A DNA stretch of 63,976 bases, the filler included, from Ministeria vibrans ATCC 50519 (lineage: Eukaryota > Protista > Filasterea), in NCBI GenBank assembly GCA_943704425.1. It is 13 parts of 13 records of this genome, joined end to end, with 100 filler letters (N's around TTAATTAATTAA, not from the genome) between each part and the next. Parts side by side here need not be neighbours in the genome. Positions count along the whole stretch, not along the records: positions 32,913 to 39,579 come from CALSCP010000235.1; 12 more parts are not named here. One strand, written 5' to 3'. The notes beneath the pieces were generated by a model. The model did no database searches, had not been told where the DNA came from, and worked only from the letters and a program-made list of their open reading frames with translations. Every line of letters begins with the position of its first letter. Within the stretch, counting starts at the first letter, position 1. This document shows, piece after piece, positions 20,399 through 39,579 of the stretch. A program made the position numbers and the translations under genes.

Positions 20399-21359
20399 TC
20401 AGGCACTCAGAACGCCTTCAATTGCTTCCAACAGCGCAAGGGAGTCGCTCAACTTTGTGAGATTGGTGGGTTTTTTGAGGACGTGCTTTTTCAGCTCGCG
20501 CGAATCAATGACAAACGCGCGCGATCCTGGAGTTTTTCCTGGAGCCAACAGATCTGCAGATATTTCTCTTCTCAATTCCGCCCTGGCGTCGCAAACAACC
20601 TTTTTCGCGGAGATTCCATCATGCTGAGCGTTTGCAATGTCCAGCGAGATTCGATTGCGGACAAAGAATAGATGAGGGCGCGCGCCTCGGAACAACGTCC
20701 GGGAGTACTTCAAACGTCCGTACCTCTGAATTGTCTTTGCAATGCGCATAATATCTGTGGGCACTCTTCCAGAGCAGAAAAGAAGCAAGCAATCGTACGC
20801 AACCAGATGAAATCGTTTGCAGTACGAAGCCGTTGGAAATGTGGTTGTGCCGCATCCAGGCAGATCGACAAGATAGAGGCGTTTTCCGTTCCGCAATACT
20901 TTCCAAAGGTATTGTTTTGGAAACTCCGTCGTTTCCGTGCTTCCGATTGGAGCAAACTCTCGGTCAGTCGAATTTTTCCCGCGCATCGCATTCACTGCAT
21001 CAGACTTTCCAGCACCCGATTGACCGACAAAAGCTATATAAAAAGAATCTGCGCGCAGTTTTGCTTTGACTCTAAGCTCAGCCTTTGAAACATTAAATTA
21101 AACAAGGAAGATTTATTCAGGCATGAAATAAAAATGAAGAAGAAGAATGCAGCCCATATTAATTATTCATGAATCATGATATAGTAAAAAGGTGCAAAAT
21201 AATCACAATAAGGAGCAAAGACAGGTTGGCGGATGGCCAGAAAGAAATATTTTTTGGGTCGAATAAAAGTCGAAGAAAAGTCGAATAAATATTTTTTTTG
21301 AATGTTGTGAGCACCTTGGTCTCAAATGATCGCGATTCATGACTGTGTCCGCCCCCCAT
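20399..21359 (-). CDS. Immunity-related GTPase-like (IRG/IIGP, p47) protein 1, about 242 aa; exons 21315-21359, 20399-21082
   Basis: MGGGHS start; GQSGAGKSDAVNAMRG, APIGSTETT, VDLPGCGTTTFPTASY, YDCLL and FFVRNRISLD parallel the IIGP1 G domain. Confidence 0.8.
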
Positions 21360-22626: not shown

Positions 22627-25600
22627 TTAAAGGAGATGAGGAGGAGAAAGCATTGGAAGGACAGGACCGACCGTGTTGATGTACAGATTGGCACAGGGGG
22701 CGTGGTAGTCACGGCCGCCCCACTGCAGCGACACAGAGGTCAGCGGACCCTCACTGGAAGCAAAACAGCAAGTTGCGTCAGATAGTTGTATGCTTCGCGT
22801 GTGTGCGTGTGTGTACATATGTATGTATGTGACTAGTACCTTTGTACAATGGGAGTGCAGCAAAGCGCACATGATGTCGCGGCGGGTGTGGCGGGTGACG
22901 GCTCAAGACTTTGCGCGGGAATGGCAGTCTGTGATTGAGATAGAATGGGCGCGAGAATGGTCCATTCCTGGTCAATTCCACTCAGCGATTCCTATGCACA
23001 AATCAAGTCAAATATGAGTCTTTTTTTCTTTTTCTCTCGCTCGCTTACGTTCATCGAGTCAGCCGACACACTTCCAATATGCATTGCAGAGCGAATGCGA
23101 CGCGAGAAACGGTACATCTCAGCAAGAGCAAGTAGTTTAGCGCGGAACGGTTTGCTGTCGATGACTTCGGAGCGCAGAGCAGGGTCAAGCGACGGAAGAG
23201 CATTGAGAGCAGAGGAGGCATCGCGCAGACGAGAAAGGGTGTTTGCGAGGCAAGTGGACCACACGGAGGCGTGTTCGCTGTGATTGTCATTGTGGCTGTT
23301 GTTGTTGCTGTTGAGACTGTTGTTCTTCTTGTGAGGCGTGGTGGGCGAGCCAAGTGTGTGCTCTGGTGCTGCGGCAACTTCATCCACCGTCGACGCGTTG
23401 TTGTTATTGTCGTCCTTGTCATTGTCGCCGTCAGTGACAGTGATGGGCTCGTCAAATGCTTTGAAAATGCTGTAGCGATCGGATGGGTTGAGCGACTCAG
23501 TGATCGTGGCATTGGTGTTGCTGTTGAGTGCCGCCTGGCGACGACGCTCCTCCCGCTCCGCGTCCAGTGCCGCCAAACGCTGCTCTTCCTTTTCGCGGAT
23601 GCGTGCCTCGAGCTGCTCGGCCGTCAGTTTGGGCGCGTCACTGACGACAGTGGCACCGCCAAGCAGGTCAAATTCGCCAAAGCCCCCAGAGGTCGACTTC
23701 TTGTGATATGTGCCAAAGGCCGGACGCGTGGGGGCGGCCGGTGAAGCAATAACCGTGTCGACCGGTGCCTCAGTACATGCATCGCTAGAGGTGTTGGTGT
23801 GATTGCCATCTTGGCTAGTTGTGGATGCTGGTGCAAAGTCATCGGCGGGAGCAGACGCAGCGGGGGCTGCAGAGAAGTCACCAAAATCGTCAGCGGGAGC
23901 AGACGCAGCGGAGGCTGCAGAAAAGTCGCCAAAATCGTCAGTGGGAGCAGACGCAGCGGGGGCTGCAGAGAAGTCACCAAAATTGTCAGCGGGAGCAGAC
24001 GCAGCGGAGGCTGCAGAAAAGTCACCAAAATCGTCAGCGGGAGCAGACGCAGCGGAGGCTGCAGAAAAGTCGCCAAAATCGTCAGCGGGAGCAGACGCAG
24101 CGGGGGCTGCAGAGAAGTCACCAAAGTCGTCAGCGGGAGCAGACGCAGCGGAGGCTGCAGAAAAGTCACCAAAGTCGTCAGCGGGAGCAGACGCAGCGGA
24201 GGCTGCAGAGAAGTCACCAAAGTCATCAGTGGCAGTTGTGGTCGGCGCTGCTGAAAAAGTTGAGGCTGCAGGCGCAGTAAAATCACCAAAGGCACCACTC
24301 ATAGCGACTGGTAATGTCTCAGAAAAAGCACCAGTGTTAGCGTCGTCATTCGGGGAAATAGGCGCTGCAGCGGGCTCAGTAGCCGAGGTAAAGGCCGAGA
24401 AGCCGTCTTCAACCTGCGCTGACGACGGTTCAACGGAGGCAAATGCCGCAAACTTATCGATGTTGTCGGATGCCAACGGTTCATTGCCGCTACTAGCGGT
24501 TGCGAGGGTGGAAAATGCAGAGAATTTGTCGCTGTCGTCCGATGGCAACAGCTCGTTGCTATTGCTGGCGGGTGCAAGAGCAGCAAATGCAGAAAACCTG
24601 TCGTTGACGTCTGTTGGAGCACTTGGTGTTGTTGTTGTCGTGGGCGGTGCAGCGTGAGAAAACGAGCCAAAGTCATCGGTGTTTGGCGGTACGATTGGCG
24701 CATCGTGTGCGAGGGGTACTGCGGCCGTTGCAGTGGGAAGCAAAACTGCGTCGGTAAAGGAACCAAAGTCATTGACGGGAGCAGATGTCGCAGCAGTAGC
24801 AAAGGTACCAAATTCATTGGCAGTTGAGGTGGGTGCCGTGGTCGCGGCTGAAAAGGAGCCAAAGTCATCGGCAGGAGCAGATATGGCAGCAGTAGCAAAG
24901 TCTCCAAATTCATCGACAGACGAAGTGGGTGCAGTGGTCACAGCTGAAAAAGAGCCAACGTTTTGGGACGTTGAACTCGGAAGGATTACGGGCGGAGCAG
25001 CAGAGGCAATAGCAGCAGTTGTGGCGTCGGATTCTTCTTGTCTAAGGGAAGCATAAGGATCGGATGGGTCCAGAGAAGAAGCGATACTCTCGACGGGGGG
25101 CGGAGTGACAGCCTGACGAAAGGCCGAGTAGGGATCGGATGGGTCGACAACGTCATCTACTGGAGCAGATGCAGTGGGTCCCTCAAAGTCACCAAAGTCA
25201 TCGTCGTCACCATCAACTTCCTTGGTCACGTTGCTGTAGTTGTCGTTGCTGTGAACAGCGATGGGTGCAGGCGTTGAGAGAGAGACGCCTTCGAGACGAG
25301 GCACAGCGAGCTCACCGCAGGCGGTGAGGTGCTCAAGGGTCGCCTTGTGGCTACGCTGGGCCTCCGCCACGAGAGCGAGCGCCACAAAAAACTCCTGACG
25401 GGTGAGCTGACCGGGCTGAGTGCGGTTGACAATGTCCCATATAGTGCGAAGTTGAGCAACGTCAACGAGTGATTTAAGAAACACGGCGTACACCTTGTCG
25501 CCGGGACACACACCCGTCTCTGGGTGAGCCACGAGCCCATACACATGGCGATAGGCCTCGGGAATACACTGTTCAGACGCAGGCGAGCCTGACTGCTGCA

Positions 25601-25694
25601 GTAACAGCGCTACGGGCGACATGCCATCGCCACTGACTACATCTGTGGCTACAACCGCTGCTGTTGCTACAGATGCAGAAGGGGCAGACGATAG

Positions 25695-25729
<35 letters not shown>

Positions 25730-27004
25730 GAAGGAGCTGTTGCTGTTGTTGTTGCTGAAGAAGAAGGGCTTCGGCTTGCAGACGCTGCTGCTCCTCGGCG
25801 GCTGCTTCGCGCTGCCGCTCCTCCTCGGCAAGGCGATCCTCGTCGACAAACATGCCGGAGAGGGTCTCGGAAGTGGCAGACCAGTTGACAGTGGCGACTG
25901 TTTGAGTGCGCACTGGCTGGATGGCGGCACGCGGGGCCTTGGGTGTGCGTGGTTTGGGCGCCTTGACAAACCGTTTGGGGCCACTCGAGTCGCTGAAATT
26001 CAACGCATTGCTAATGAGCGAATCAATTGCAACTGCGGGAGGTGGAGAGGTAACGAGGGAAGCGCGGGGTGGCTCGCTCGTTGGCTTTTGCGACGTGGCT
26101 GTGGCGGGTGCTTCGTTGAAGTCGCCAAAGTCGTCGTCGTCATCGTCAACGGCGGACGCAGCAGACACTGCGGGCATGGTTTGCGCTTGGAGAGCGTGTT
26201 GGGGCATTGTCATTTGCGGCTGAAACTGAGGCTGTTGCATTTGCTGCTGCTGGAGCTGCGACGGTTGCATTTGCGGCTGCATTTGCGGCTGCTGCTGAAA
26301 CTGAGACTGTTGCATTTGCTGCTGTTGGAACTGAGGCTGCTGCAGTTGCTGCTGCTGGAACTGTCGCTGTTGCTCTGGCTGATGTTGCGGTACGCCTGAT
26401 TGGGCGGATTTCTTTCCAAACATGAAGTCGAGCGGGTTGGCGGCCCTTGACAGCTTCGACGCGGCCAAACGTTGCTTTTGCTCCTCAAAGAGATGTCGCT
26501 TTTGCTGCTTGAGCATCTCCTCCTTCTGCCGCTCAAACTGCTTTCGCCGCGCCGCCTCCTCCTTGGCAAACTGTGCCTTCTGTGGCGCCGTCAAGGACGC
26601 ATGCCACTGCTCAAACTGCGGCCCACTCGGTGCCACATACTCTTGGGGCATCTGTGGCTGGTGCATCGCCGGCGAAGCATAGCCCATCATCGTTTGTGGC
26701 GCTACACAAAATTGGAAGAGTAAGTTTTTTTTTTTTTTTTTTTTTTTTTNNNNNNNNNNCCTTGACAAAATTCGGCAAAAAAAAAAAGGTTTTATCATCT
26801 CGATAATGTCCAACCTTGTGACATCATTTGTGGCTGCATCATTCCCATTTGAGGCTGAGGGCCGGCACTGTGCAAAAGAGAGGTCGATAAAGGGAGTGGA
26901 AGAGTGTTGAGGGAGAGCGTAAGAGCAAAACACGAAAGTAGAAGTGCTTACCCATAAGCATAACCCTGCTGTTGCTGCTGGGGTACACCCGGGTGGTAGC
27001 TCAT
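22627..27004 (-). CDS. SYNRG: Synergin gamma (EH-domain accessory protein of AP-1)
   Basis: Gln-rich N-terminus with FEEQKQRL, EH domain (LRTIWDIVNRTQPGQLTRQEFFVALALV), many DDFGDF motifs, C-terminal CALC...WGGRDYHAPCANLYIN. Confidence 0.85.
23838..24228. repeat. Coding 48-bp tandem repeat, 8 units (ADDFGDFSAASAASAP), in synergin gamma
   Basis: Visible in both DNA and translation. Confidence 0.95.
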
Positions 27005-30203: not shown

Positions 30204-32415
30204 GGCGCTGAGGCGTACGGATGGCACAATCTGGTGGAAGATGGATGTGTGGAGTTGCTGGATGCAAACGAGGAAGAGTGCTGTATGATTACGATGGAGC
30301 CCAATGATCTTGAGGAATTGCGACAGACCGAAGCGAAGGGTAATGTCGGGTGCAAAAAAGACAATGATGATTCATTAATATTCTCGTGTTTTGATGTTGT
30401 GAACAGGTGAGCGACCATACTGTTCAATGTACACGCACTGTGAAATCCACCCTGCTATGCAACTGGGTGTCTGTGCGTCTATTATTCCCTTCCCGGATCA
30501 CAACCAGTCGCCGCGCAACACTTACCAGTCGGCCATGGGAAAGCAGGCGATGGGCGTCTACATCACCAATTACCAAGTGCGCATGGACACCACTGCGCAC
30601 GTGCTGTTTTATCCACAGAAGCCACTGGTACGCACCAAGTCGATGGCCTACCTGCACTTCAGCGAACTACCCGCCGGCACCAACGCGATTGTTGCCATTT
30701 CCGTCTACAGTGGTTACAACCAGGTCAGAGAATGACAACGAGAGAGAAAGGCAGAGGGATTGACCTTTTTTCGTAGGAGGACTCTGTGATTATGAATCAG
30801 AGTGCAATTGATCGTGGACTCTTCCGCAGTCTGTTTATGCGGACGTACAATGCCAAGGAGGAGAAGAGCATTCGCGACCCGTCCAAGCAAGAACTGCTTG
30901 AGATTCCTCGTCGCGAGGAGTGTCGAGGTAACAATTATGTGTATATAATATATGTATGTGTGTGGGTGTGGGTGTGGGTGTGTCTATGTCTTTGTGGTGT
31001 GTGTGTGTGTGTCTATGTCTTTGTGGTGTGTGTGTGTGTGTTTGTCGGAAGAGAGGGGGGAGACGACAACTAAGCGTGAATTGAGAATGTAAATGGTGTG
31101 GTTGACTGACTGATTGATGGTGGCAGGATTCCGCGCGGAGGATGTGTATGCCAAGCTGGACGTGGACGGACTGGCGATTCCCGGGTCACGCATCAGTCCC
31201 AATGACTGTATTATCGGCAAAACATCGCCTCTCGATGGCGAAGACGAGCTCAGCGGACATGCCACAAAGACACTCAAGAAGGTGTGTGTCAACAAGAGTA
31301 ACAACATATTTTGACAATTAATGTCGTTTAATGTAGGATTCATCTGTGTATGTGCGTGCGACTGAGTCGGGTATGATCGACCGTGCAATGCTCACTGTCA
31401 ATCAGGATGGAAACAAGTTTGCAAAGGTCAGTTAGTAGCAGAGAGAGAGAGGGAGTGAGGGCAAGATTCTCACGAGCCACAATCAATTGGTTGAATAGGT
31501 TCGCATTCGCAACATCCGAACGCCCCAGATTGGTGACAAGTTTGCGAGTCGACACGGACAAAAGGTAGAACAACAAACAGCAACGTATCGGGCGGACTGA
31601 CTTTCTTCTGACTCTATTATTTGTTTCGTTTTTGTGTCTTACTCTTCCCTCTTCTACCTTGCTTTCACTTTTGTTTCTTTCTCCCTTGATGTGTATGTGT
31701 ATCGGTCCGTGTCTTTTAGGGTACGTGTGGGATTACGTACCGAATGGAGGACATGCCGTTTACGACGCAGGGCATTACGCCCGACATCATCATCAACCCG
31801 CACGCGATTCCGTCGCGCATGACCATTGGTCATCTCATTGAGTGTCTTGAGGGCAAGGTGGCATGTCTGCGTGGCAAGGAGGGCGATGCGACGCCTTTTA
31901 ACGATGTGACAGTTCCCGTGGTGGCGGACAAGCTGAAGCAGCTCAACTACCACTTGTATGGAAACGAGGTGCTGATGAACGGGCACTCGGGGCAAAAGAT
32001 GAACACGCAGGTATACCTGGGTCCCACTTACTACCAGCGTCTCAAGCATATGGTCGACGACAAGATTCACTCGCGCGCGTTTGGGCGCACGCAGCGTCTC
32101 ACGCGTCAGCCCATGGAGGGTCGTGCGCGCGACGGAGGACTTCGCTTTGGTGAGATGGAGCGCGATGTGATGGTGGCGCACGGCGCAGCGCAGTTCCTCA
32201 AGGAGCGTCTTTGCGAGCAGTCTGACGCGTACAAGGTGCACGTGTGCGACCTATGTGGTCTGATTGCCATTGCCAAGTTGCCCGACTTTGAGTGTCGCTC
32301 ATGCCAGAACCAGACCAAGGTGTCGCGAGTGGAGATTCCGTATGCCTGCAAGTTGCTTTTTCAGGAGCTCATGGCCATGCAGATTGCGCCTCGCATTATG
32401 GTGCATGCCAAGCGT

Positions 32416-32421
<6 letters not shown>
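30204..32421 (+). CDS. RPB2: RNA polymerase II second-largest subunit, C-terminal part
   Basis: [60 protein letters not shown] and [11 protein letters not shown]. Confidence 0.97.
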
Positions 32422-32912: not shown

Positions 32913-33020
32913 AACCCTAACCCTAACCCTAACCCTAACCCTAACCCTAACCCTAACCCTAACCCTAACCCTAACCCTAACCCTAACCCTAACCCTAACC
33001 CTAACCCTAACCCTAACCCT
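32913..33020. repeat. Telomeric repeat (CCCTAA)n/(TTAGGG)n, 18 units, at the contig start
   Basis: Perfect array with the G-rich strand running toward the contig end. Confidence 0.95.
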
Positions 33021-35833
33021 TCCTGCCCTCACCAAGCGCAAACTCGGCAGCGTTGGCGTTAAGAAAGTCGCTTTTGTCCAGCATAATCGGGCCTATGCGT
33101 TGGCTCAGTGAATCGTAATGCTGGGTGTCGATCACACACGTCGTGCAGCCACAGCGCGTGACCGCGTACCGCTCGTTGAACTGCTGCAGGCGCTCGGCAA
33201 TTGGCGACAGTTGCACGGCAGTACCCGAATCTCCGTCGCAGGACGCAGTGCGCAAGGTAAGGGTGGTACTGGCCGCGTTGGGCGCCTGCAGAAGCGCGAG
33301 TCTTTTCGTCTGAGCGCCAAGAACAGCGCTGCACCACCGGATAGGACGTGCATCTAGCTTCTCGTCTACGCAACACTTCTTTGCGCCGGTCTGGTCGGTG
33401 TAGAAGAAGAGGGCACAGGCCGGATCTTCACGGAGTGTGTCAATCAGTGGCGCGAGTACCATCTTCTTGACATCGTCGAGCGTCTCGAAGACGATGCTGT
33501 CTGGCAGGCACAGTAGGTAAACACTGCAGTTGGTGTCGGAGGACGCGTCGGACTGGTACAGAGGCAGACGGGCGACGGCATTGACGGGCAGGTTGAGGAG
33601 CGGTGCAAGAATGGCATGGATCTTTGGCAGGAGGAGCGTGTTCGCGGCATCGTGCAGGTGTTCGAGAGTGACAGAAGCGTTGGCAATCATCAAGTCGAGA
33701 ATAAGAGGAACTGTTGAGGCCGCACCAGTGACAACCTCGTAATAGGAGCGATCGGAGGTGCGCATTGTGTGGACACATTGTGCCGCGGGCTGCACGATGT
33801 ACGCTGGGAACGTGCGGCCATTGGGAGTCTTCGTATTGTAGGACCAAATGCGTAAGTCGTCGGACGGGCAGGGCACTGGCATGTTGTAGCGCGTGCGCCA
33901 GTTCTCGAGCTTGTCTTCCTTGAGCGGTGGTCGGCCTTCGGCGTACGCGCGTGCGTTCTTGAGGTACTTGTGGGGCAAATGCTGATCAGCAAGGTGATGG
34001 AGGGTCCACTTGGCAGCGAACGGAGGGTCGAACAGTGGTGGCAGAACTGGCGTACAGATGTCTTCTTCGAGGAAGGCGACGCCTTCGTTGTCGTCGTTAC
34101 AGAGTGAAACAATCGGGTGCGTGAGCCTTTCTTCGCTGTCGGCGTTGCAATCTTCATCGTCGTCTTGGGATCCGTCTGTAGGGCCATCTTTGCTGCAATC
34201 GTCGTCTTGGGTTCCGCTGCCATCGTTGTCTTGGATTCCTTGGGCTCCGCTGCCATCGTCGTCTTGGGTTCCGCTGCCATCGATGTCTTGGATTCCTTGG
34301 GCTCCGCTGTCATCGCTTTCTGTGGTTCCGCCAGCCCGCTGAAAGCCCTCGTTGACGTCCGTGTCGTCTTCTTCGTCCATGGATGTAGAAGCTCGCTGAA
34401 TGTCCCCGTCGCTGTTGTCGCCCTCCATGGTGTCAGTGTCGTCTTCCTCGTCCATGGGTGTAATAGCCCGCTGAATGCCCTCGTTGCTGTAGGCGCCTTC
34501 CATGGTGCCCGTGTCGTCTTCTTTGTCCATGCGTTTAGAAGCTCGCTGAATGCGCTCGAAGTTGTTGTCGTCCTCGCTGACATCCGTGTCGTCTTCTTCG
34601 TCCGTGGATGTAGAAGCTCGCTGAATGTCCCCGTCGCTGTTGTCGCCCTCCATCGTGTCTGTGGCGTCTTCGTCTGTTCCTTCGCGCAGCGTGTCTGAGT
34701 GTGTAGACGACAAGAGGGTGTTCGCGGAGTCAGACAAGCGTTGGCGCTTCGTAGGTGAGATATGGCCGTGAGAATCGCTCGCTCGTCGTTTGCTCGGCTG
34801 CTGGAGAGACACAACGCTGCTGTCACCGCTTTTCACCTTGACGCTGGAGCGACTGCGAGACGCATCGTCCTGCTGAGACGTGTCTGATGCTGTCGCTGGC
34901 GAACCTAAAGAAGATGAAGGGTGGTCAGAAACTGTGCTATCTGTATGGTCCAAAGGGAAGGCGCGCTGATTCTTTGCAGGAGGTTGCGTGCTTGGTATTA
35001 AGAGAGTGACGAAAAGAATTGATGAGTTTTGATGATTCGCGCTTGCAAAAAAAAAGTGTCTTAAACGTGCTGGCTCACCATAGTCTCCCTCACCGAGTTC
35101 AGTGGGTGCTTGCTTGGCCTGAAAAGACAAGGTTTACGTCAATGCTTTTCTTGCGTTCTCTTCGTTCGCTCTGTACCTGAACCTCAGCGTTGGGGTTCCC
35201 ATCCGGCGCAGTCACGGTATCGAGTGTCGCACACATGCCATCCAGTCCCTCCACCACCTTGTGCAGAAGTGCCTGCAGCACTGTGTACTCTGTTGTCTTC
35301 TCGGGAAGTTCCTGGTCCTGCTTGGATAGCTTCTGCCGGAAATGGCGAGTGTTCCTCTTGCGTTGATAAATTTCCTGCAACAATTCAGTGCGTCGCGTCT
35401 CATGGGCCTGCTTCTTCTCCATGACTCTGATCATCGCCTCGTCAAGATGTTGGTGCGCCATAGCCCATACATCGCAATCACCTGTCTCCTCGACATTTTC
35501 CTCTTGTATCTGGAGCACATCCGCGTCGCATTTATTGATGTCGGCTTTGATCTTTGAAAACTCAACCATGCCCTTCACAATGCCTCGCATTTCCCGAGCA
35601 AGTTCCCTCGACGTCTCAGTCAACTGCTCGACCGCCTAGTAGAATGCGAGTTTGAATCAGATTATCGTAAGGAAAAGCTGAACAATTACCTGAACTTGCT
35701 CTAGCTCTGTCAAACGCTTTATGACCGTTGCAGCTGCCTGAGCGGCGGCTTTCACCTCCACATCGACCACCGTACACGCATCATGCGACGCTCTGTCGCC
35801 CCATTGCACAAGAGTATCGACATTCTGAACCAT
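33013..35833 (-). CDS. Coiled-coil + acidic repeats + degenerate AEP/PrimPol-like domain, about 844 aa; predicted exons 35690-35833, 35177-35635, 35079-35118, 33013-34904
   Basis: Three frame-preserving GT-AG introns; RSYYEVV..PLILDLMI, SDASSDTNCSVYLL and CVDEKL resemble PrimPol motifs (RxxYEVI..LYFDLE, DSSTxxKFSxHLI, FVDxGVY); start codon uncertain. Confidence 0.55.
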
Positions 35834-35845
35834 CTCGGTATCAGG

Positions 35846-35883
<38 letters not shown>

Positions 35884-37100
35884 GCGCGCGCGTTTCAAAC
35901 GAGTTTCGACTGAAAACGACTCTTTGGTAACACCAGCATTAAAAGGCTGCATAGCGGCTGCATAGCGTTATTAGACTATTTTAGACGGGGCGATAGACAA
36001 GAACCATCGAGCGATTGCCCTGCTGTTCTTGAGGAATCGTCTTGATGTGGCGACGAAAGAAAAAAAAACGGACGGAACTCACGAAGAGAATAAAACGCGT
36101 GTTTGTACTCGGAGGTAGGCGCGCGGATGGATGCTGACTATTGCCGAGTGAGTTATGGCTTACCAGTGGAAGCCGTCGACGATGTATTACGGCGGGACAT
36201 GGAAAAAGAGTGATCACTACTTCACTAGAGTGATCACTACTCTGGAGTGGAAATTGTCTAGAATCGCCTGAAACGCTCCGTGTGCGCCGGCTGAGTCTCT
36301 TCACGGAGAAGCGCCACGCGAGGACTTGTGTGGCGCTGGACGGCCATTATTGAGACGCGTCGATGGTCACCAGAGCGGATGGAGAGATACGGAAAGGTAT
36401 TGCGTGCAGTTGTTGCTCAAGCTGAGTGCTACTCAAGGTTTTCTTGCCGACGTCCTGGTGATGTTTAGGTCGGCCCGTACCCCCTCACCCCATCACCGGT
36501 CACCAAGCCCCTCATAGAGCGTCTCAGAACTTCGTCAAGCGCCTGCGCGACGAGCACCACTTCACCAACTACGCTCTCAGTGTGTTTTAGAGATGTGCAG
36601 AAAATCACACTTGCTCAGCAGTTTTCTTGCTTCTGGCGAGCTAGCAACCGCCACGAAGGATCAAGACGAGGGTGAGGAGGAGAAGCCGAACGATTGCAAG
36701 AAGTAAGCGAGATCGTTTAGCATGCAAAAACAGCCATTTTCAGGGAATTTTCAGCCATTATGCAACCTTCACAACCAACACTGTCTACACCAAATACACA
36801 AGAACCTGCCCTTGCCCCCATTCGCTGCACCCCATTTACACATTCGGGCGTGCAGAATGAACACACAAGGCATACAGCAACCTACCCCTGATGAACCCAT
36901 AGGGCAAACGGCGCCGGACGACGCCCTCTCTGGTTTGGATTCAGTTTCGTAACGCAGAAATCGACAATCAACACAACAAGAAAACACGCCCCCATCAACA
37001 CAACTCTCTCCTATGGATATACGGGGTGTGCTGGCTTATCGAGAAGGCTTATTTCCATGGATCAGGAATGAATAAAGTGTCGAATAACTCACTGTCGATC

Positions 37101-37279
37101 GATCTTCAAACCAGGCAAACCAGGCAAACCAGGCAAACCAGGCAAACCAGGCAAACTTTTGAAGCTTTCAATCAAGGAGGTGGTGAGGTGATGAAGTGGG
37201 TGGGAGGCAACTGATCTTCAAACCAGGCAAACCAGGCAAACTTTTGAAGCTTTCAATCAAGGTGGTGAGGTGATGAAGT
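37101..37279. repeat. Duplicated unit containing CAAACCAGG x5 and x2, each array bracketed by the inverted repeat CTTCAAA/TTTGAAG
   Basis: Directly visible, upstream of the helicase gene. Confidence 0.9.
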
Positions 37280-37626
37280 AGTTGGCAGGGGGTGGGTGGG
37301 TGGAGGTGGACACTGGCAAGTCCAGAGCTTGTAAGCAAAAAGTGTAGTGAGCTGGTGGAGTGGTACCCGGTCTAGTGGCAGAAGTGAGCCTTCAGCATGT
37401 CCGGGGTGTCCAAGGTGCGTCCAGGGCGTGAAAATTTTAGAGTGTCAGCAGACATCAACAAAATCACCCTGTCGGAGCTTGTGGTTCGCGATAAGGGTGG
37501 CGAGGCGTTGATGCGATACAAAGGCTGTAAATGCAGACATCTAAGTAGTGATCAATTCAATTTCCAATTCTGAATTCAGTCTTTTTCATTTTCTTTCTTT
37601 TCTTGTCTCACTTCCGGTGTCTCATA

Positions 37627-39579
37627 ATGAACTCAAGTCAGACATATGGCTCTGGCGAGTGTGAAAAGCGTCCACGTTCCGATTCAGACGGAGGTAGGGG
37701 TGCAGATGAACGACCACACAAGCGACAGTGTCTTGCAGCGCGAGCGCATGGGGGGAGCTCATCAGCGACTGACGATCCGATGAGCGCGGAATGGGGGGCG
37801 ATCAAGGAGGACCAGGCCGCCGTCCAGACCGCTCACCAGGACACGTTCGCTCGTGTGGACAGCAACTCCTCCTCGACACAGAGTGACAAAGACGACCGCG
37901 CCATTTACCTGGACGCGAGCAGCACCACAAGTCCGATGAGTGTGGGCACTGACCCCCCTTCAATGGAGAGTGACGACGACGGCCAGGCCAGTCAGCTGGA
38001 CGCAAGCAGCACCACAAGTCCGATGAGTGTGAACACTGACTTCCCTTCAACAGAGAGTGACACACACAACGACAATCACGCTCCTCACCATGGCGCAAGC
38101 AGCACCACGAGTCCGATGAGTTGCAATCCCGATCTCTCCTCATGCTCAACAGAGAGTGACAACAACGACTGGGCTCTTGCCGGTTGTGCCGAGCAGCTTG
38201 AAGCCGAGCAGCTTGAAGCCGAGAAGTTTGAAGCCGAGCAGCTTGAAGCCGAGAAGTTTGAAGCCGAGCAGCTTGAAGCCGAGAAGTTTGAAGCCGAGCA
38301 GGCAAACGCGGCAACTCCCACATCTGCAGCGAGCCCGATTGTTGCAGCACCGAGCACATCCTCACTCCCGAGTATGCGCGATGCCTTGGCCGAGTTTGAC
38401 CACAAGTTTTACGTCGTTCCACAAGGCAGCGGCACGTACGTCATGGAGCCGAACGCTTTTGACCCTGAGATGGAGACGCTATGCACACGGTACATGACTG
38501 CGGCACAGTTCAGGGAATACACAGCTCGAGTGTGGGCTCAGCCGGAGAGGGGAAAATCTGTCCAGGTTGGCACATTCTGGCTGTCCAGCCCCACTACACG
38601 CCAGCTCGACGGCGTTGTCATGGATCCGTCGCTGCCACCAGGTCTCTGTCAGAAAACCGTCATCCACAGCCAGCAGGATGCTCGCCAAATCGACGTGTTC
38701 AATACGTGGCAAGGGTTCGCCGTCAAGCCCCGCAAGGGAGACTGGAGTCTCATCGACAAACACATCCGCGAGGGCGTTGCCAATGGCAAGACGGCTACCT
38801 ACGAGTACCTTCTCAATTGGATTGCGCGACTGGTGCAAGACCCCGGTACAAAGGCAACAACTGCGCTGGTGCTCGGTGGAGAACAGGGACGTGGCAAAGG
38901 CACCTTCATCAAGGACATTGTAGGCGCCTTGTTTCATCCGGCGCATTTTGTGCAAATCATGCGCGCAGAGCAGGTGACAGGTCGCTTCAATGCGATCCTC
39001 AAAGACAAGCTGGTGGTCTTTCTCGACGAGGCGTTCTTTGCGGGGGACAAGAGCCACACCGGAGTGATCAAGACTCTCATTACCGAGACCACAATGCCAC
39101 TCGAGCCCAAAGGCAAAGATCCGTTCCTCGTCAAAAATCGCATTGCGCTGCTCATGGCCTCCAACAACGACTGGGTGGCGCCCGTCGAGCTGACGAACCG
39201 CCGCTTTTTCATGGTTCACGTGAACAACGACGCCACCCTGCTAACTCCCGAATACTTCAAGGCGCTCCACAAACAAATCAACGGCGACGGCCTCGCCGCA
39301 TTCCTGCACGCCATGCTCGAGCGAGACATTAGCGAATTTCGGATGGCCGACTTTCCACGCAAAGACGCCGAGGAGTTTGAGTGGGACAATGTGCTGCGCA
39401 CCAGCAGTGCAGAGATGCGTTTCGTGTACCAGCTCCTCAAAGACGCGGACGGCGAGGCATCCGACTGGACGGGCGAGCACTCCGTTCCGAAGAGGCAGCT
39501 CTACGACGAGTTTATCGCAAAGAGTGGCTGTCTTGTGAAGTTCAATCACGAATCGGCGGTGCACAAGAAACTGCAACAG
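37627..39579 (+). CDS. SF3 helicase of D5/phage primase-helicase type (DUF5906-like) with a low-complexity N-terminus; 3'-truncated
   Basis: FNTWQGFAVKP, YLLNWIARLVQDPG, Walker A GEQGRGKGT, Walker B VFLDEAFF, motif C LMASNN and RRFF; no introns. Confidence 0.85.

Follow-up and report, generated by a model that had tools for sequence, protein, structure and literature searches.

A telomere-adjacent gene pair in Ministeria vibrans: a phage-type SF3 helicase and a spliced partner with a probable PrimPol-derived domain

Two divergent genes beside a telomere array

We analyzed 63,976 nucleotides of the filasterean Ministeria vibrans ATCC 50519 (assembly GCA_943704425.1), referred to here as the window, in which 13 contigs are joined by artificial N44-TTAATTAATTAA-N44 spacers (window 1-63976); adjacency across a spacer does not mean adjacency in the genome. 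Our subject is one whole contig among these, CALSCP010000235.1 (6,667 bp, window 32913-39579), which starts with a telomere array and carries two divergent genes, gene A on the minus strand and gene B on the plus strand. The array (32913-33020, plus strand) consists of 18.0 perfect AACCCT units, or 17 whole CCCTAA units and partial ones, with the C-rich strand 5', the orientation of a chromosome end. It is the single telomere-type array in the window, and it matches the (CCCTAA)18 that a preliminary description of this DNA had placed at the start of the contig.

The contig sequence is real and persistent across sequencing runs: part of it occurs in 15 of the 17 runs listed and at least half of its words in 9, with 6 studies represented, one of them possibly the origin of the assembly. 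Read contigs were compared in detail for four of the 17 runs, the DNA-type X1 and X2 and the RNA-type X4 and X10; no run is recorded as RNA, and the latter two were taken as RNA-type since spliced joints appear only there. The neighbouring contigs are eukaryotic nuclear DNA, and the GC content at third codon positions of the gene pair (0.69-0.71) compares with 0.66-0.76 in the host genes of the window. We considered bacterial contamination and rejected it on the basis of spliceosomal introns, the telomere and host-like codon use. Within the window, blastn found no second copy of the pair and the tblastx rows were short, low-identity noise; Rfam gave no match. The lack of microsatellites, which had been offered as a distinguishing mark, holds (0 against 5.6 expected at a flat rate) but is a weak sign, as an 8.3-kb array-free stretch also occurs in another contig of the window.

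Gene A is a spliced nuclear gene of five exons. Exon 1 (36164-36627) contains the 5' untranslated region (UTR) and a likely ATG at 36200, and record 26 of X4 places it across a 316-nt GT-AG intron from exon 2 (35690-35847). The 54-nt intron 3' of exon 2 is spliced in X4 and X10, which come from different studies, and exon 3 (35177-35635) follows with a predicted coiled coil and weak coiled-coil-type matches. Exon 4 (35079-35118) is 40 nt long and lies between GT-AG introns of 58 and 174 nt, both with X4 joints, while exon 5 (33013-34904) encodes basic patches, acidic repeats and a primase-like domain before its C-terminus is cut by the telomere. All exons are on the minus strand. Three GT-AG introns were predicted from the sequence, and all three are joints in X4, one of them also in X10; X1 and X2 show no spliced joints of gene A. 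X4 depth is zero in intron 1 and at 37182-37400, an internal silent control. The spliced frame has 861 codons from the ATG at 36200 with no internal stop, and its product comprises, in order, a predicted coiled coil, basic patches (KRRAS, PTKRQRL), acidic Ser/Thr repeats (75-bp unit x4.2 at 34357-34671 and 57-bp unit x2.5 at 34192-34331, exon 5, minus strand) and a globular domain of ~330 residues. In X4, a variant copy is transcribed further upstream (36598-37044), and a 35-base loose end behind 37044 does not match the window and may represent a further exon or an alternative 5' end.

The ~570 bases between the two transcripts (37045-37612, no strand assigned) have no RNA cover and are likely a bidirectional promoter. 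Here, between the two transcript starts, lie a 9-bp repeat, CAAACCAGG, present x5.6 at 37107-37156, and a 74-nt duplication (37134-37207 and 37219-37292); these short repeats resemble iterons and might have a role in an origin. The ~1.8-kb repeat-bearing spacer proposed earlier keeps its repeats but loses most of its extent, which is largely gene A exon, intron and 5' UTR. A search for bacterial promoter and terminator patterns in 36600-37700 found none, which is uninformative for a eukaryote.

A phage-type SF3 helicase in gene B

Gene B (37627-39579, plus strand) has at least 651 codons and no visible intron, and it runs off the contig end. It is transcribed, with X4 cover from ~37613 and no joint listed. 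Some 245 residues with basic patches (KRPR, KRQCL) and acidic Ser/Thr repeats precede a superfamily 3 (SF3) helicase region. The two proteins share this arrangement, in which a basic patch and acidic Ser/Thr repeats have been added ahead of the enzyme domain. These patches and repeats had been noted from the outset and are present in both genes; the patches are putative nuclear import signals.

The predicted product of gene B is an SF3 helicase of the DUF5906/NrS-1 type with intact motifs, as the preliminary description had suspected in calling it a divergent D5/DUF5906-like helicase. It matches Pfam DUF5906 at E 1e-22 (81.4 bits, curated cut-off 27.6), a VapE-like family at E 1e-11 in the Pfam scan, phage primase families, the NrS-1 helicase structure at E 3e-10 and 397 annotated phage records. 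Identity is 30-45% for all 83 protein matches, and those that carry a name are bacterial or phage-type; among the eight top helicase matches, one name, Hyphomicrobium, was obtained. The helicase motifs span 38878-39207 on the plus strand, and Walker A (38878), Walker B (39013), the sensor 1 Asn (39154) and the arginine finger (39199) carry the residues that most of the family has at the invariant positions, and gene B retains 44 of 54 columns conserved in the family. Relatives extend a median of 51 residues past the point where the contig end cuts gene B (measurable in 34 of the 83 matches).

The N-terminal part is where gene B departs from its relatives. We collected the best 80 of 162 viral and the best 80 of 448 metagenome helicase loci (1.56 Mb); in 114 of these 160 related loci at least 200 residues precede the matched part, and gene B has low-complexity sequence there. 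No primase family was matched in its first 245 residues (Pfam, PHROGs, NCBIfam), and the fused N-terminal primase domain of phage primase-helicases is absent from the predicted protein. The closest described proteins are DUF5906/NrS-1 polymerase-like primase-helicases of bacterial phages, such as the Pseudomonas phages Epa5 and MP1412. The likeness takes in the helicase domain together with its preceding subdomain, at 32-37% identity for most of 404 residues. Where these proteins have a primase domain, gene B has basic patches in low-complexity sequence, and it lies in a eukaryotic nuclear context. In a helicase tree of 107 sequences, kept from 214 after removal of near-duplicates, gene B is a long branch, the 7th longest; the set holds no eukaryotic or giant-virus helicases, so a donor cannot be named from it.

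A probable PrimPol-like domain in gene A

The C-terminal domain of gene A resembles PrimPol and other archaeo-eukaryotic primases (AEPs) over approximately 33271-33858 (minus strand), with motif I as D-x-M (33696-33688) and motif II as S-x-Y (33525-33517). We consider its descent from this superfamily highly probable. In the ESM Atlas it clusters with AEP_C962R at a score of 0.94 (181 of 256 features, 22 of 30 matches), and 4 to 10 of 100 shuffled proteins score 0.9 there. With AEP_C962R excluded, herpes UL52, AEP-TOTE, RepB and eukaryotic PrimPol appear at 0.84-0.87, accompanied by unrelated rows. Additionally, we built a PrimPol-type profile from 15 giant-virus loci chosen by a PrimPol motif III pattern, 13 of which were aligned. 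It recovers human PrimPol at E 1e-23, and of six members scanned with Pfam two fall into AEP_C962R, two into UL52 and two into no family. The gene A domain beats 2000 of 2000 shuffles against this profile (P 0.002), and the alignment spans motifs I and II, neither of which is in the selecting pattern.

Other searches returned little. PHROGs and NCBIfam scans of the domain gave no match, solved structures none at E 10, and phmmer against 1.84 billion representatives three matches, all short, multi-stretch and with E 5e-6 or worse. Relatives of the domain were found in 0 of 15 candidate stretches on viral contigs, 0 of 389 on metagenome contigs and in no annotated phage. A single-sequence AlphaFold model reached a predicted local distance difference test (pLDDT) of 35; an alignment-based model had pLDDT mostly 70-90 at residues 21-170 and below 50 over most of the remainder, and Foldseek matched it to human PrimPol and giant-virus AEP proteins. 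These matches indicate compatibility only, because the model was built on a PrimPol-type alignment and the comparison is circular.

The two placed motifs differ from those of every relative: D-x-D/E and S-x-H occur in 133 of 133. For motif III there is no confident placement, the alignment being ambiguous there, and gene A keeps 19 of 72 conserved PrimPol-type columns. All three motifs are described as required for priming in a characterized AEP (PMC11724360), and because motifs I and II are altered, this copy is likely inactive as a primase. The primase-like gene pointing at the telomere in the preliminary description is probably AEP-derived as proposed, yet it has five exons and has lost two catalytic residues, and the picture of a self-sufficient replicator able to prime DNA synthesis is not supported. 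We also observed, on giant-virus contigs, a large family of stand-alone PrimPol-type proteins of ~350 residues that retain every catalytic motif and have a UL52-like finger; the Pfam AEP domain was found in 0 of its 4 scanned members.

Compared with the PrimPol and African swine fever virus C962R-like AEP domains of eukaryotes and giant viruses, gene A is alike in the Atlas features and in how the YEV strand, the motif I strand and motif II are ordered and spaced, but it lacks the second acid of motif I, the motif II histidine and the VYxxNRxFR block. C962R is described as a fused AEP-PriCT2-D5_N-SF3 protein (PMC10516667), whereas gene A is unfused to PriCT-2, D5_N or a helicase, and a UL52 zinc finger is not clearly recognizable ahead of the point where the telomere truncates it.

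The preliminary description had pointed to AEP and SF3 helicase as the replication module of many phages, plasmids and large DNA viruses; that the pair is such a module, taken over as one piece, is not supported. Among the 160 helicase loci, neither the PrimPol-type profile nor the gene A domain matched any of 8,154 frames, and no locus held a telomere-type array. Because none of these loci holds a PrimPol-type gene, the pair does not appear to be a known viral module moved whole. The two halves seem instead to have different ancestries, the helicase in the bacterial-phage primase-helicase family and the AEP-like domain in the PrimPol/giant-virus family. We found no description of this gene combination in literature listings and abstracts; it is unusual and apparently undescribed.

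Diverged copies and the telomere junction

Both DNA-type runs contain variant contigs, with substitutions and indels, that cover the two genes as well as the spacer between them. The gene pair is multi-copy and its copies have diverged. Because the divergence of the variants exceeds what alleles usually show, we regard the pair as repeated as a unit. This evidence comes from 40 of 161 differences and 32 of 188 pieces examined, and parts of the gene A domain have no variant at 88% identity or above.

These copies could also be two independently acquired genes, partly domesticated or decaying, that were passively duplicated in a plastic subtelomere and have no role in their own spread. The different ancestries, the tolerated truncation and the fast, largely non-synonymous change among gene A copies would fit this account, and there is precedent in Acanthamoeba, where subtelomeres are described as gathering and duplicating virus-derived DNA, with giant-virus insertions near telomeres, present as partial copies and not expressed (PMC12210455). 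In M. vibrans, unlike those silent insertions, the genes are expressed and splicing of gene A is correct; the two reading frames, of 861 and at least 651 codons, are intact, and the basic patch and acidic repeat layout common to both proteins suggests joint adaptation. We hold passive duplication to be unlikely.

At the telomere, the stop codon of gene A (33015-33013) lies inside the array and is supplied by its first unit. In X1, X2 and X4 a contig continues for 255 bases past 33023 instead of entering the telomere. Read by hand, the first 30 bases of this continuation are non-telomeric and open for nine codons, and the two bases at 33019-33020 fit the telomere register and the continuation alike. 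Because another copy continues, the telomere cuts gene A rather than bounding an element, contrary to the earlier proposal that it is the element's own end, and this copy was likely broken inside gene A and healed by the telomere. It is very unlikely, in our estimation, that the join is instead an assembly chimera or a rare sub-population and the pair an ordinary internal repeat. That account draws on the non-telomeric sequence in each of the three runs that have a loose end at this point and on the lack of a bridging record, but the array is perfect, correctly oriented and at a contig end, the two shared bases are what telomerase healing is expected to leave, and telomere-bearing contigs may be filtered out in the read search.

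Contig depth over gene A in X4 is about ten times higher for the variants (211-246) than for the window-type sequence (22-24), a weak hint that the window-type copy is the minor one, contig depth being a poor measure. In X1, variant contigs have depths of ~67-107 and window-type contigs 56-80; in X2 the values are ~254-504 and 130-207. A ratio that differs between X1 and X2 could also be read as copy-number drift of a telomere-capped linear replicon or minichromosome, replicating from the 9-bp repeats with its own helicase. An end-oriented telomere beside replication-type genes and short direct repeats between divergent genes would suit such a replicon, which the preliminary description had also entertained. 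We judge it the most improbable of the accounts given here: it has no positive evidence, no second telomere was seen, the telomere truncates a gene that continues in another copy, the primase motifs are altered, codon use resembles that of the host genes of the window, and the depths carry no baseline.

A larger mobile element deserves more weight, although we still consider it unlikely. The pair would form the left portion of a polinton-like virus or DNA transposon that carries a PrimPol-type gene and an SF3 helicase, with a mobility gene beyond the right contig end. Chance would have broken and capped one copy, and there may be an active one elsewhere in the genome. In favor are the joint duplication of the two genes with the spacer and the open right end of the contig. 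As here, polinton-like viruses bring AEP and SF3 domains into a protist-type genome, and they are described as encoding fused AEP-S3H replicases (PMC12220804, PMC4642659); in M. vibrans, however, the domains are unfused and lie in two divergent genes that differ in ancestry, gene A having four introns. The 6.7-kb contig holds no capsid, packaging ATPase, integrase or transposase gene, its right end being open. Within it no terminal inverted repeat exceeds 27 nt at 78%, and it contains neither of the unit's actual ends.

Other features of the window

Four features outside the contig are recorded here. The C-terminal exon of RPB2 (31720-32421) has at most 72% identity to proteins (120 best of 318 matches), a divergence that we read as a deep-branching or poorly sampled eukaryote. 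The contig at 41105-42381 is entirely an armadillo-like repeat frame (123-bp unit x10.4, 82% identity; labelled by eye). A 1,251-codon frame at 22995-26747 (minus strand) has a 48-bp repeat x8.2 and polyglutamine-like runs, and a frame at 20402-21097 (minus strand) has a P-loop resembling an immunity-type GTPase, again labelled by eye.

Discussion

Helicase-bearing elements of chromosome ends are known from the Y' elements of yeast. The fungal and choanoflagellate TLH genes are a second case, and in both, as in M. vibrans, a repeated helicase-bearing unit lies by a telomere and recombination-based copying of chromosome ends is possible. TLH genes are described as encoding RecQ helicases of superfamily 2 (SF2) that carry C2H2 fingers and a TLH domain (bioRxiv 10.1101/2024.02.27.582403), whereas here the helicase is a phage-type SF3 ring helicase with a divergent partner gene, without TLH domain or C2H2 fingers, and the terminal location comes from one copy only. 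The view that this is a telomere-adjacent unit whose helicase differs in type from the RecQ-type telomere-linked helicases is supported. The unit's mode of action would parallel that of Y'/TLH elements, though its helicase is unrelated to theirs, and it would not be a member of that family.

We tentatively favor, as a possibility that falls somewhat short of probable, a subtelomeric repeat unit whose copying among chromosome ends is favored by a phage helicase without a primase domain and by a likely inactive PrimPol-like partner that probably acts as the helicase's loader. Both proteins would enter the nucleus by way of their basic patches. The helicase would form a ring and unwind DNA, and the gene A protein, with its coiled coil and a primase fold presumably unable to bind catalytic metal, may serve as a DNA-binding loader or targeting factor, standing in for the primase domain that the helicase has lost. 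Synthesis would be left to the host primase and polymerases, and the likely result is that recombination copies the unit at the ends of chromosomes, a mechanism that has been proposed for the Y' genes of yeast and the TLH genes of fungi. The rival readings given above overlap in part.

Several observations weigh against this reading. There is no evidence that the two proteins interact. Among 30 coding differences examined, the residue changes in 15 of 22 affected codons of gene A and in 2 of 4 of gene B; the gene A differences are mostly non-synonymous and give no sign of purifying selection, though they are too few to judge. We know of one copy beside a telomere, and the one other end observed begins with at least 30 bases that are not telomeric. 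The compared stretch, which began at 33021, showed no record that spans both telomere and gene, and in X1 the single contig depth at 33079-33103 carries window letters while the continuation occurs in the same run, so the window-type copy may continue too. The contig depths have no single-copy baseline and yield no copy number. As for the AEP fold, the Atlas score of 0.94 and profile P values of ~0.002-0.02 stand in its favor, while Pfam (nothing at E 10), phmmer and hhalign (probability of an AEP match 2%) fall below significance and the single-sequence model has the low pLDDT given above. Against a larger and narrower profile of 133 sequences, the score of gene A is reached by 52 of 3000 shuffles and by 4 of 203 unrelated proteins. 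The telomere link comes from one truncated copy.

It is tempting to speculate further that the pair is a selfish chromosome-end element of a new kind, in which a eukaryote-adapted phage ring helicase is loaded at the 9-bp repeats by a dead PrimPol and uses host polymerases. Such an element might copy itself from telomere to telomere, or on telomere-capped minichromosomes, and would be an independent version of the Y'/TLH strategy made from viral parts; we regard both this mechanism and this mode of spread as doubtful.

If the subtelomeric reading is true, viral parts can be reassembled, by eukaryotes or by their parasites, into a helicase unit of chromosome ends. It would also provide a second system for asking what telomere-linked helicases do, the described ones being RecQ-type. 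Even if the telomere link is incidental, two virus-type replication genes would have been turned into expressed, repeated nuclear genes of M. vibrans with the same added targeting layout.

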